Shown: positions 1,557 through 11,975 of the stretch, piece after piece
How positions within the stretch are numbered: position 1 is the stretch's first letter
How the letters are laid out: the number at the start of each line of letters is the position of its first letter
Source: a virus
Lineage: Duplodnaviria > Caudoviricetes
Reading direction: 5' to 3' (one strand)
DNA: 54,510 bases
Virus record (IMG/VR): IMGVR_UViG_3300036770_001615
Location: 1 to 54,510 of that record
Position numbers and translations under genes: made by a program
Notes under the pieces: generated by a model
The model's database searches: none
What the model saw: the letters and a program-made list of their open reading frames with translations, nothing else
Told to the model about the DNA's origin: nothing

Positions 1557-1633
1557 GCCCTGGTGATGGAACAGGTATACGTGTCTGACTCAAAATCAGA
1601 ATTTTGTGGGTTCGAATCCCACCTAGGGCACCA
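1557..1633 (+). tRNA. tRNA-Leu(CAA), short variable loop
   Basis: TCTGA-CTCAAAA-TCAGA, 5-nt V loop, CCA. Confidence 0.9.
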
Positions 1634-4509: not shown

Positions 4510-4596
4510 GCCCGGGTGGTGAAATAGGTAGACACAAGAGACTTAAAATCTCTCGCCCGAAAGGGCGTGCCGGTTCGATTCCGGCCCCGGGCACCA
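4510..4596 (+). tRNA. tRNA-Leu(TAA)
   Basis: CTTAAAA loop, long V arm, CCA. Confidence 0.95.
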
Positions 4597-6292: not shown

Positions 6293-6298
6293 AACAAT

Positions 6299-6386
6299 GG
6301 GTGTTGCCCCTGCCGGCGGACTGTAAATCCGTTACTCTGAGAGGTAGGAAGTCGAGTTCGTGGAGCGTTACCATCAACACCCACCA
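6299..6386 (+). tRNA. Non-canonical tRNA-Tyr(GTA): 8-bp acceptor, 4-bp T stem, no D arm
   Basis: GGGTGTTG/CAACACCC plus A-CCA; GCGGA-CTGTAAA-TCCGT; GTGG-AGCGTTA-CCAT. Confidence 0.75.
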
Positions 6387-6438
6387 AACACACAAAAGAG
6401 ATAAATATATCTCTTTTGACACAGAGAGGAAACAGAGT

Positions 6439-6525
6439 ATGGAATTTGTAGGAATGAACATCCTAGCCGTATTAGTTATGTCACTAGTGATTATCATTAG
6501 TGATATAGTTAACTTGCTAGATTAA
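6439..6525 (+). CDS. Small hydrophobic peptide (28 aa)
   Basis: GAGGA SD, single TM segment, TAAATA hairpin upstream. Confidence 0.5.
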   Translation: MEFVGMNILAVLVMSLVIIISDIVNLLD

Positions 6526-6531
6526 GAATAA

Positions 6532-7061: not shown

Positions 7062-7601
7062 ATGAAACTTAACGACTACATTTTTGTTAGCAAACTTTTT
7101 GATTCACAAGAATGCGATGAAATAATAAACAAAACCAATCAGTATAAATGGCGCCAACATAAATGGAATGCCTCTAATACAAAGGTTAAGTCAGTAGAGG
7201 AAATCGATAACATTCTAGTATGTAATATTGATCCTTTACTTGAAAGTAAAATATCTCCTAAGTTATTGAACGTATTTGGAAAATATAGTATCCTATTTGG
7301 ACCACATAGTGTTCCAATTCAGTTGACTAATCAATGGGATAATATTAGAATAAACAAATATACAGAAGGTGTCGGTATGAGAAATCATATTGATCACGGT
7401 ATAGATAGGGAACATCCTGTACTTACAATCATTGCGTTATTGAATGACGAATTCACAGGTGGTAATACTTTTATCTTAAATGAGGAAGTATTGCTTAAGA
7501 AAGGTGACTGTGTTATCTTTCCTAGTAATTTTATGTATCCACATGAAATTAAACCTGTAGTGAATGGTACAAGATATTCACTAACTACTTGGGCTTATTA
7601 A
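7062..7601 (+). CDS. 2OG-Fe(II) oxygenase (prolyl-4-hydroxylase-like)
   Basis: HIDH...FTGG...FPSNFMYPHEIKPV..GTRYS. Confidence 0.9.
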   Translation: MKLNDYIFVSKLFDSQECDEIINKTNQYKWRQHKWNASNTKVKSVEEIDNILVCNIDPLLESKISPKLLNVFGKYSILFGPHSVPIQLTNQWDNIRINKYTEGVGMRNHIDHGIDREHPVLTIIALLNDEFTGGNTFILNEEVLLKKGDCVIFPSNFMYPHEIKPVVNGTRYSLTTWAY

Positions 7602-7934: not shown

Positions 7935-8805
7935 GATTGGGGGCATAGCCTCGTTAGAATAAGTGTAGCGATACACCCAAAGCAGAATCCGCCTACAGGA
8001 CTGCACCAGCAATGGTTCATCTATGCAAGCCTGCTCACACCCGTGAGGGTGCGATCACTGATAAGACCGGTGGTTGTAACAATGAAGCAAGTGTGTTGGA
8101 AAGAATGTCTGTTTAAGTCCCCGCAAGGGTAAGACAGGCAGACAGAGAGTAACAGGTGGTGCTGACCTCAACACAAAACCAACTTGTCAATTGGTATGAG
8201 AAAGGGTAGTATATATTGTCCGAAGGGTCGCTCCTAAGGGCGTGTATGCAGTATGAGTGGTTAATGGGTATTGATTACGGGTCAATATACATAAATCGCA
8301 AAATACGTCTGAGTAGTCCGCGAGACAAAAGGAACGTGGTGTGTTGTATTATGTAATCCAAAAGATTATGTAGCAACTGAGGCAGCACATCATAGTAGGT
8401 TCAGTTATAGCACAACGGTAGTGCAACTCCATTTATCCAGGAGTCGGCTGAAGGTTCAAATCCTTCTAACGATTATAAAAACGCAAAGTCTGCCTCGGTT
8501 GTATGTGAAAAGCATCTAACTCTCAGGCCGCAAGGTAACTGAGACTGACGTAACTCGCAAGGTGAAATCAGTTTATGCTAGAAGATTCGTAACGGTTTAG
8601 CGACTGTGAATGGCTCGCAAGGTCAACGGGTAATAAAGCGTAGAGTAGCATATAACGTCAAGTCTACTGCATGACTTTAAACTGCGATGCTGGTAATAGA
8701 CGTAGATACCGCAAGGGTTTACGTGGATATCGGAAGAAAGTATTCTCGCAAGGAATACAATAATGTCCGAGGTATTACTGGCTAACGTGTAATCTCAGCG
8801 TTAGC
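7935..8805 (+). ncRNA. Large ornate RNA, GOLLD-like (boundaries approximate)
   Basis: ~870 nt with no credible ORF; dense GNRA-capped hairpins (CGCAAGG x6); terminal GCTAACG-TGTAATCTCAG-CGTTAGC hairpin; phage tRNA-array context. Confidence 0.75.
8401..8473 (+). ncRNA. tRNA-like domain embedded in the GOLLD-like RNA
   Basis: D arm GCAC-AACGGTA-GTGC, ACTCC-(9-nt loop)-GGAGT, T arm GAAGG-TTCAAAT-CCTTC; no CCA. Confidence 0.75.
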
Positions 8806-9999: not shown

Positions 10000-10614
10000 A
10001 TGGTAAATTATTTTCATAAAATCAATAAGTTTTATATTGATCATAAAAAATTATATGATGAATGGTACAGTGTGGCTACTAAACATGATATGTTTGAGAG
10101 GACACACCACTTTGTATCCCGCAGAACGTTAGACTATTCACCTTCTATTCCCGTATATTATAAATTATTGATTAATTACCCTACATCAATGGATCAAAAC
10201 ATTGATCCAGTATGGTTAGATAGATCGGAAGATAACGACACTGGTAATGATACTACTTTTTCAATCGACAACATCAATATAAATTTTAAAAATTCATATA
10301 CTGAAACTGTAGTAAAACATATAGATAAGTTTATAACGTCGAAATACAAATCATATAAAACAACAGTAGTAAAATATGCGGTGTTAAGACCTAATTCACT
10401 TATTAATACTCATGTAGATAAAAGGTCTATACCTAGATTTTTCTTAACCGTAAACGCCCCTCAGGGATGTTTTATGGAAGTATGTGGTGATAGGCATTCA
10501 TTAAGTGATACGGGAGCATTATTTAAAATGATATGTAATGCACCGCATAGTCCTATTAACGAAAGTGATCAATTTCGTGTTATGATAATTTTTGATGTTG
10601 CTCCCGCAACATAA
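10000..10614 (+). CDS. Asp/Asn beta-hydroxylase-like oxygenase
   Basis: LRPNSLINTHVD...PHSPINESDQFRVMIIFD. Confidence 0.7.
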   Translation: MVNYFHKINKFYIDHKKLYDEWYSVATKHDMFERTHHFVSRRTLDYSPSIPVYYKLLINYPTSMDQNIDPVWLDRSEDNDTGNDTTFSIDNININFKNSYTETVVKHIDKFITSKYKSYKTTVVKYAVLRPNSLINTHVDKRSIPRFFLTVNAPQGCFMEVCGDRHSLSDTGALFKMICNAPHSPINESDQFRVMIIFDVAPAT

Positions 10615-11200: not shown

Positions 11201-11397
11201 GCGACGGTGGTAAGGGTAGCAGTCCTCGCCCATTTAGTGTAGATAGAAAAACTTTTGAAAACAATTGGGATGCTATCTTTGCTAAGAAAAAAGAGGAATC
11301 AACAGAACAAAGCGGGTATAATTCAGGGGTAGAATGTTTGCTTGCCAAGCAAAATGTCGTCGGTTCGAATCCGACTACCCGCTCCAATGATAGATGA
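11197..11397 (+). CDS. Small protein (GKGSxPRP..NWDAIF) whose frame runs through tRNA-Gly
   Basis: GTGA overlap with the upstream stop, ATGA overlap with the downstream start. Confidence 0.6.
   Translation: MSDGGKGSSPRPFSVDRKTFENNWDAIFAKKKEESTEQSGYNSGVECLLAKQNVVGSNPTTRSNDR
11312..11386 (+). tRNA. tRNA-Gly(GCC)
   Basis: TTTGC-TTGCCAA-GCAAA, U73, CCA. Confidence 0.95.
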
Positions 11398-11975
11398 ACT
11401 ATCAATCTCTGATTGAAAGAAATGTATTTTCGCTAATGGATCCATTAGCAGTTCAATGGTTAAAGAATCATTGTTCTACACTTTCATCTGGAGATATAGT
11501 AGTTGAGTTAGGCACTTTTTTAGGTGGTACTATAAAAAGTTTAGCCGAATCTAATCCAAATATTATTTTTCATACTATAGACATTAATGATGCTGAATGG
11601 TGGCATGAAAGAAATTATATCTCAAACGTAAGAAAAGTATCTGGTAATAATTTAATAAATTTTAACAAAGAAGATTATTTGAAAATTCAAGATTTGCATC
11701 TTAATCATTTAATCAATGTTGTTAGACATACGGGTTCTAGTTTAACTTTAACTATACCAAACATATCATTATTAATCAGTGATAGTTCGCATAATGAAGA
11801 ACTAACATATCAGGAACTCAATCATTTTTGGCCTCTAATTAAAAAGGGTGGATCAATAATTGGAGATGATTTTAATAATATGCCGGAAGTTAAACGTGCA
11901 TTCATCAGATTTATAAGAGAAAACAATCTATCTTATTCAAGAATTTATAGTAATCAAATAAGAATTGTAAAGTAA
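11394..11975 (+). CDS. Class I SAM-dependent methyltransferase
   Basis: VVELGTFLGGT...DSSH...GGSIIGDD. Confidence 0.8.
   Translation: MNYQSLIERNVFSLMDPLAVQWLKNHCSTLSSGDIVVELGTFLGGTIKSLAESNPNIIFHTIDINDAEWWHERNYISNVRKVSGNNLINFNKEDYLKIQDLHLNHLINVVRHTGSSLTLTIPNISLLISDSSHNEELTYQELNHFWPLIKKGGSIIGDDFNNMPEVKRAFIRFIRENNLSYSRIYSNQIRIVK

Follow-up and report, generated by a model that had tools for sequence, protein, structure and literature searches.

A candidate D-armless tRNA-Tyr recurs in the tRNA arrays of uncultured freshwater phages

An 88-nt element encoded on the + strand at positions 6299-6386 of IMG/VR virus record IMGVR_UViG_3300036770_001615 is probably a functional, non-canonical tRNA-Tyr (anticodon GUA) of uncultured freshwater phages. 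We put the probability of this reading at roughly two in three, with expression, charging and decoding predicted from sequence comparison. The window analysed here is the entire virus record, 54,510 nt long and rated 14% complete. Where a D arm would stand, the element carries a strand that pairs 3' of the anticodon arm. We favour function because the element recurs, its stems covary, it falls in the tyrosine slot of the surrounding tRNA arrays, related arrays hold either it or a D-armed tRNA-Tyr, and its tyrosine features are invariant.

Results

A tRNA-like element with a rewired D region

The initial annotation, made from the letters of the window, described a perfect 8-bp acceptor stem with A73-CCA, a tyrosine anticodon arm, only 9 nt in place of the D arm, a helix between CCTGCC and GGTAGG, and an 11-nt linker. 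All of these features are present at the positions where they were placed (Table 1, in which element position 1, G1, is window position 6299, G17 is 6315 and U35 is 6333). The gap between the acceptor and anticodon stems is 9 nt (6307-6315) and holds no D stem-loop, and the additional helix contains a single G.U pair.

Set against canonical tRNA features, the acceptor stem has 8 bp rather than 7, but it closes both ends of the element and is followed by the discriminator and CCA. The anticodon arm matches the canonical form, with a 5-bp stem, a 7-nt loop, U33 and a purine at 37. A canonical T arm has a 5-bp stem with a T-Psi-C-R-A loop; the hairpin found here, with a 4-bp stem and a loop that is not T-Psi-C, does not qualify as one. 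By position, the two-nucleotide connector may be equivalent to canonical nucleotides 8-9. The additional helix is best seen as prolonging the anticodon stem: on the 5' side one strand runs unbroken from 11 to 22 through a 12-bp helix, and the 3' side is interrupted by a bulge of 9-11 nt.

Table 1. Features of the element at 6299-6386, and protein-coding genes of the surrounding array, in window coordinates.
Feature	Position	Strand	Description
Acceptor stem, 5' strand	6299..6306	+	GGGTGTTG, 8 nt; perfect pairing with 6375-6382; 6 of 8 pairs compensatory (22 distinct sequences)
Connector	6307..6308	+	CC, 2 nt (element C9 C10); invariant in all copies
New helix, 5' strand, in the place of the D arm	6309..6314	+	CCTGCC; pairs with 6343-6348, one G.U
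Junction nucleotide G17	6315	+	Opposite U35 (6333), a junction pair resembling 26:44; G.U in 20 of 22 distinct sequences, A/C in 2
Anticodon arm	6316..6332	+	Stem 6316-6320/6328-6332; loop CTGTAAA 6321-6327, invariant; anticodon GTA 6323-6325
Variable bulge, from anticodon stem to new-helix 3' strand	6334..6342	+	9 nt here, 9-11 in relatives; sequence and length vary
New helix, 3' strand	6343..6348	+	GGTAGG; covaries with 6309-6314
Linker	6349..6359	+	AAGTCGAGTTC, 11 nt; near-invariant, consensus W-A-G-U-Y-R-R-G-U-U-C
T-like hairpin	6360..6374	+	GTGG (6360-6363)/CCAT (6371-6374), 4 bp, one G.U; loop AGCGTTA
Acceptor stem, 3' strand	6375..6382	+	CAACACCC
Discriminator and encoded CCA	6383..6386	+	A6383 (A73), CCA 6384-6386; invariant in all copies; conservation stops here, 3' flanks differ
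Open reading frames (ORFs) between tRNAs: HNH endonuclease, two 2OG-Fe(II)/Asp-Arg-hydroxylase-type oxygenases, methyltransferase-domain protein	1967-2530, 7062-7601, 10000-10614, 11394-11975	+	

The element recurs as a sharply bounded unit

The initial annotation proposed a pattern search for homologues and named a lack of covarying ones as a reason to doubt a tRNA; covarying homologues were found. Pattern scans of virus contigs, together with one metagenome scan, placed the element in 62 fetched loci, including several records fetched twice. Counted with their flanks, these loci fall into 44 distinct contexts; counted by the element alone, they give 24 distinct sequences, one of which is cut by a contig end. 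Four chance pattern hits (L013, L024, L027 and L052) were dropped because they show no acceptor pairing or no model match. All scan patterns except the anticodon-free ones, used in three scans, fixed the anticodon loop, and in nearly all of them the T region or the linker was fixed as well, so versions with another T arm, linker or anticodon may be missed.

In the flanked alignments, identity starts exactly at G1 and stops at CCA, with unrelated sequence on either side. Every copy has the anticodon GTA. The carriers are a group of uncultured freshwater phages, represented by virus records, in which the element is always located in arrays of bacterial-type tRNAs. A covariance model made from 12 variants scored 71-117 bits on all full-length copies, compared with at most ~23 bits on ordinary tRNAs, and a model search of five whole records returned one strong match in each.

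No relative spanning at least 80% of the element was found by blastn among the 50,697 GenBank phage records of INPHARED; matches covered at most 36% of it, mostly in the anticodon-arm region, and a wider 1.1-kb query returned ordinary tRNAs only. Among prokaryotes, one genome from each of 185,579 species was scanned twice by pattern, with no hits in one scan and one chance hit (L052) in the other. Contigs from sequencing run X1 (aquatic, probably DNA) over window positions 6293-6386 include one variant that lacks the bases at 6334 and 6341 and carries C6353T, and a loose contig end from the same run opens a further copy whose acceptor stem and new helix differ in sequence. Because X1 holds these further variants, the family is more diverse than the 24 collected sequences. 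Three runs on record as RNA yielded contigs without cover on 6299-6386 and are uninformative on expression either way.

Compensatory changes support the acceptor stem and the extended anticodon helix

Covariation was assessed in a set of 52 sources comprising 22 distinct sequences, which omits re-fetched duplicates, the truncated copy L041, the later-found copy L074 and the chance hits. Sequences were aligned by fit to the covariance model, and the resulting bias should be small because the alignment is almost gapless. Standard pairs occupy 99.6% of the 528 cells. Compensatory changes affect 14 of 24 pairs, to which the acceptor stem contributes 6 of its 8, the new helix 4 of its 6 and the anticodon stem 4 of its 6 (18-22/30-34, with the 17:35 column counted within the helix). 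None of 500 shuffled controls reached any of five measures, and sliding the partners by 1-3 columns left only 1-5 compensatory pairs. Pair 13:48 alone occurs as C-G, U-A, G-C, A-U and U.G. The most diverged copies, L063 and L073 (90 nt), carry wholly different complementary strands in the new helix, CCAACU/AGUUGG and CCGUCC/GGACGG.

RNAalifold, run on the 12 variants without structure input, returned the 8-bp acceptor stem, a helix of 11-22 with 30-35 and 45-50 that contains a 9-nt bulge, and a 4-bp hairpin at 62-65/73-76. The T stem GUGG/CCAU is the same in all 22 distinct sequences, and the loop reads AGCGUUA except in L074 (UGCGUUA). As this stem never varies, the T hairpin is without covariation support. 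The T region and linker appear strongly constrained, and we infer their structure from the sequence. Of the 12-bp acceptor branch (8/4) in the initial annotation, the covarying 8-bp part is well supported, and the putative 4-bp T stem would fit both the sequence and the RNAalifold model. Two smaller features were considered and rejected. A hairpin within the variable bulge (38-39/43-44 or 37-39/43-45) is not conserved, with pair 39:43 broken in 2 of 12 variants, and a contact of linker positions 55-56 with T-loop positions 68-69, suggested by the C55/U alternation, is unsupported, as 56-57 reads GA, GG or AG.

Folded alone, the window copy prefers another structure, with a minimum free energy (MFE) of -31.6 kcal/mol (z = -1.9) against -24.6 kcal/mol for the tRNA-like fold, a difference of 7; the single window sequence therefore proves little. 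The lower-energy fold pairs 13-24 with 57-69 and leaves no anticodon-like hairpin, and a structured RNA of this non-tRNA shape is one alternative that the energies favour. We consider it very improbable. Its inner helices show no compensatory change, 5 of 12 variants cannot form pairs 22:59 and 30:51, the MFE structures of variants L004 and L030 are themselves tRNA-like, RNAalifold selects the tRNA-like fold, and no Rfam family matches the element.

Nor do the alignments resemble those of a decaying tRNA-Tyr pseudogene, a non-functional relic that has lost its D arm, as might be suspected of a gene that standard finders miss and whose single-sequence z-score is just -1.9. A relic would gather stem-breaking changes, yet over half of the pairs have changed in a compensatory manner and nearly every cell remains paired. 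The 24 distinct sequences lie in 44 contexts with sharp borders, and even the unpaired linker and loop are near-invariant, which leaves decay with hardly any standing.

The element occupies the tyrosine slot

Among the 656 tRNAs called by ARAGORN in the 44 non-redundant element loci, none is a tRNA-Tyr. In the window, ARAGORN called 29 tRNAs between 370 and 11386, all on the + strand, for 19 amino acids; Tyr alone is missing, as it is from the 19 amino acids covered at L008. The claim that the element is the only tRNA-Tyr thus holds for the window, with the restriction that this record is rated 14% complete, and the proposal that it fills an otherwise vacant tyrosine slot is borne out across the loci. 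Record G001 (169,497 nt, rated 100% complete) has no Tyr either: ARAGORN assigns every one of its 26 Rfam tRNA hits, which together account for 19 amino acids. Records G002-G004 hold 23, 26 and 17 ARAGORN tRNAs, again with no Tyr. The initial annotation also advised checking for a phage tyrosyl-tRNA synthetase (TyrRS) or a normal tRNA-Tyr: the TyrRS/TrpRS-type domain PF00579 was found in none of six records (the window and five related ones) and in 14 of 14 control genomes, and no canonical tRNA-Tyr was found in the element-bearing loci.

Bacterial TyrRS recognises an identity set of A73, G34/U35, G1-C72 and a long variable arm, a stem-loop contacted by the enzyme. Across the 22 distinct sequences, A73, G1-C72, the GUA anticodon, the loop CUGUAAA and CCA are invariant. 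Burkholderia phage BcepNY3 (L051) has an annotated tRNA-Tyr to which element positions 16-37 (22 nt) are 100% identical. The variable region is the bulge of 9-11 nt, which has no conserved stem, and the hairpin that the window copy could form there is not conserved.

Two related arrays contain a different tRNA-Tyr. At L053:1931-2014 (+) and L059:681-764 (-), ARAGORN calls an 84-nt tRNA-Tyr, and both arrays have 27 nt of the adjacent tRNA-Glu in common with the element arrays, letter for letter. A search of the whole L053 and L059 records (25% and 14% complete) found no copy of the element, with a positive control of 5 out of 5. Each sampled array holds one or the other, the D-armed 8/4 tRNA-Tyr or the element, and this pattern agrees better with a working tRNA-Tyr than with a decoy. 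Like the element, the L053/L059 tRNA-Tyr has an 8-bp acceptor stem, A73-CCA, GUGG on the 5' side of the T stem, an anticodon stem of 6 bp whose first pair is G.U, the same anticodon loop and a CUC-loop-GRG start of the variable region. Unlike the element, it keeps a D arm of normal build, with a 4-bp stem and an 8-nt loop, a T stem GUGG/CCAC and a T loop UUCGAGU, and it has no counterpart of the new-helix 3' strand or of the 11-nt linker. The D-armless form may descend from an ancestor much like this 8/4 tRNA-Tyr. Apparent echoes of the linker in the L053 tRNA-Tyr (AAGUCG at the start of the D region, UCGAGU in the T loop) are post hoc and mutually inconsistent, and nothing was drawn from them.

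The same arrays bear on a further alternative, that the element is a tRNA-Tyr mimic acting outside translation, either as a decoy that occupies a host factor directed at tRNA-Tyr, for example an anticodon nuclease or retron-type effector, or as a regulatory tRNA-like RNA. The acceptor end and anticodon arm would then serve as bait, and neither charging nor entry into the ribosome would be necessary. Such a role would suit an RNA that tRNA models do not recognise, that has a non-T-Psi-C loop and that has no D loop. PMC11555353 and PMC10264068 describe phage tRNAs, tRNA-Tyr included, that counter tRNA-targeting defences, and text of PMC5389517 describes some irregular 8/4-branch tRNAs that are charged yet unused in translation, or inactive. 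A mimic leaves unexplained, however, why no normal tRNA-Tyr stands beside it in arrays that span the other 19 amino acids, and why related arrays carry a D-armed tRNA-Tyr or the element. It also leaves the retention of a putative 12-bp acceptor branch, A73, G1-C72 and an encoded CCA, which go beyond the needs of an anticodon-loop bait. We regard a mimic as unlikely, though it is the rival to be taken most seriously, and prefer a tRNA-Tyr that works in translation.

Array and genome context

Rfam recovered the same 29 tRNAs in the window as ARAGORN, plus a full-length GOLLD RNA (RF02032, 213.6 bits) inside the tRNA array at 8336-8801 (+). Within the GOLLD RNA lies a weak tRNA-like stretch (8401-8474) that ARAGORN reads as a tRNA-Ile(tat) with a mismatched acceptor stem. 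A palindromic 11-bp hairpin at 6393-6418 starts 7 nt past the CCA of the element and is listed as terminator-like on the - strand only; between it and a tRNA-Asp is an ORF of 28 codons (6440-6526). Besides the protein-coding genes in Table 1, the array contains several ORFs without a family assignment.

Other tRNAs of these phages are also irregular. The window tRNA-Leu(tag) at 1298-1374 and tRNA-Leu(caa) at 1557-1633 (both +) are 77 nt each; their variable loop is short, where a bacterial tRNA-Leu would be expected to have a long arm such as that of tRNA-Leu(taa) at 4510-4596. The 77-nt forms are seen again in many related loci, so remodelling seems to extend to a second type of class II tRNA in these phages. 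A 95-nt tRNA-Ile(tat) with a variable region of ~26 nt, drawn unpaired by ARAGORN, occurs at L004:6402-6496 (-) and in L005-L009, L011, L012, L017, L020 and L064, with 92-nt versions in L060, L062, L069 and L071; according to text of PMC5389517, UAU is a predominant anticodon among reported allo-tRNAs. An 86-nt tRNA-Cys(gca), ~10 nt over the usual length, is found at L014:1962-2047 (-), the same record as L048, and a tRNA call at L073:13483-13555, where the fetched stretch ends, has an anticodon of two bases. On a virus contig with the shared tRNA-Glu stretch, ARAGORN also calls a permuted transfer-messenger RNA gene (L057:6609-6947, +) with tag peptide ANDSIFGEERLAA.

CheckV ratings of records G000-G004 suggest that the carriers fall into two size classes, of ~170 kb and ~350 kb. 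The smaller class is represented by G001. Ratings that point to the larger class are 37% for 130,630 nt, 20% for 68,336 nt, 17% for 62,574 nt and 14% for the window, which seems to belong to a phage of roughly 350 kb. Locus L062 is located on a 364,554-nt contig.

Discussion

Comparison with known systems

The closest architecture, by analogy, is the D-armless mitochondrial tRNA-Ser, a design that appears to have been described only there so far. In the tRNA-Ser(AGY/GCU) of animal mitochondria, text of PMC9427863 describes nucleotides replacing the D arm that pair 3' of the anticodon stem and extend it. Like the mitochondrial tRNA-Ser(GCU), the element has no D stem-loop, an extended anticodon stem and a non-canonical T loop. 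The mitochondrial tRNA is organellar, shorter, of serine identity (GCU/UCU) and served by co-evolved mitochondrial factors, and it reportedly has no tertiary core. The element, in contrast, belongs to phages of bacteria, is of tyrosine type, has a putative 8/4 branch and a 9-11-nt bulge in its long helix, and carries, ahead of the T hairpin, an 11-nt linker that is near-invariant. This linker suggests that a tertiary module is kept.

The initial annotation knew of no such combination in phages. No D-armless phage tRNA was found in the literature, supplements not covered, and in the text of a 2020 review of non-canonical tRNAs (PMC7609411) D-armless forms are given for mitochondria only and the word "phage" is absent. 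The 8/4 branch, on the other hand, has already been reported in phages: main-text passages of Mukai et al. (PMC5389517) describe 8/4 allo-tRNAs as well as phage tRNA-Ser and tRNA-His, all D-armed. The element shares with these the 8-bp acceptor stem and the occurrence in phage tRNA clusters from metagenomes, and with its putative 4-bp T stem it would share the 12-bp branch (8 + 4) too. Those 8/4 tRNAs keep a D arm (tRNA-Sec-like, with a long stem and a tetraloop) and a long variable arm, and the element has neither. Neither tyrosine nor an 8/4 tRNA-Tyr occurs in the searched main text of that paper, whose supplementary figures may hold related irregular phage tRNAs. With canonical class II tRNA-Tyr, exemplified by BcepNY3, the element has in common the 22-nt anticodon-arm identity, G1-C72, A73 and CCA; the canonical form differs in its 7/5 branch, D arm, T-Psi-C loop and variable arm directly before the T stem.

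A proposed mechanism

We propose that the acceptor stem and the invariant GUGG/CCAU hairpin stack into the usual 12-bp branch (8 + 4), which EF-Tu, RNase P and the CCA enzyme would read. The long anticodon helix would replace the D stem and anticodon stem together and so preserve the distance from anticodon to CCA; its layers of 6 + 1 + 5, if stacked, could keep the dimensions of the L. Strand 11-16 would sit topologically at the site of the D-stem 3' strand, because it is continuous with the anticodon stem through G17 opposite U35 (like 26:44), and its partner 45-50 would arrive from behind the variable region, oriented like the D-stem 5' strand. The linker would leave the top of the helix at the D-loop site and, together with the AGCGUUA loop, is a candidate for an elbow that replaces the D-loop/T-loop contact. 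Host TyrRS would charge the RNA through A73, G1-C72 and G34/U35, and the charged RNA would read UAY codons as the tyrosine member of an otherwise complete phage tRNA set.

Why the body should be so altered is a matter for guesswork: the odd form might evade a nuclease, from the host or from a rival, whose target is normal tRNA-Tyr. This role is plausible because, as PMC11555353 and PMC10264068 describe, phage tRNAs can counter tRNA-targeting defences. In its strongest form, the proposal would make the element the first D-armless elongator tRNA on bacterial ribosomes, with a rewired D domain and a linker that takes over the D-loop contact, serving TyrRS, EF-Tu and the ribosome while staying invisible to a nuclease or other factor directed at ordinary tRNA-Tyr. 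We hold that full version to be doubtful.

Weighing a functional tRNA-Tyr

Several observations weigh against a functional tRNA-Tyr. The invariant T stem and near-invariant linker are structure without covariation support, and the window copy by itself prefers another fold by the margin given above. The hairpin loop departs from T-Psi-C, and a D loop is missing. Neither RF00005 nor any other Rfam family matches 6299-6386 at the gathering score, and the sole overlap at E <= 10 is a chance match to snoR442 (6322-6342, E = 1.3). ARAGORN, in six modes that included lowered thresholds, mitochondrial and intron settings, called only the neighbouring tRNA-Glu and never the element. As the window is 14% complete, its own phage could carry another tRNA-Tyr. 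The case for transcription, processing, charging and decoding is a prediction from comparison, and we know of no D-armless tRNA that works on bacterial ribosomes. These points temper our estimate; we still favour a functional tRNA-Tyr on the grounds given at the outset.

Implications

The textbook view is that tRNAs outside organelles retain a cloverleaf of four arms, since all of them pass through the same RNase P, modification enzymes, EF-Tu and ribosome. If the reading proposed here is true, bacterial translation tolerates a far larger change in tRNA architecture than has been assumed. The element is the sole tyrosine candidate in otherwise complete phage tRNA sets, and the absence of Tyr from all 656 array calls points to a systematic hole in the annotation of phages by standard tRNA finders. 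It would also offer a natural scaffold for the design of orthogonal tRNAs. For the phages themselves, it may provide a concrete case in which to ask whether, in conflicts over tRNA-targeting defence, they reshape whole tRNA bodies beyond the anticodon loop.

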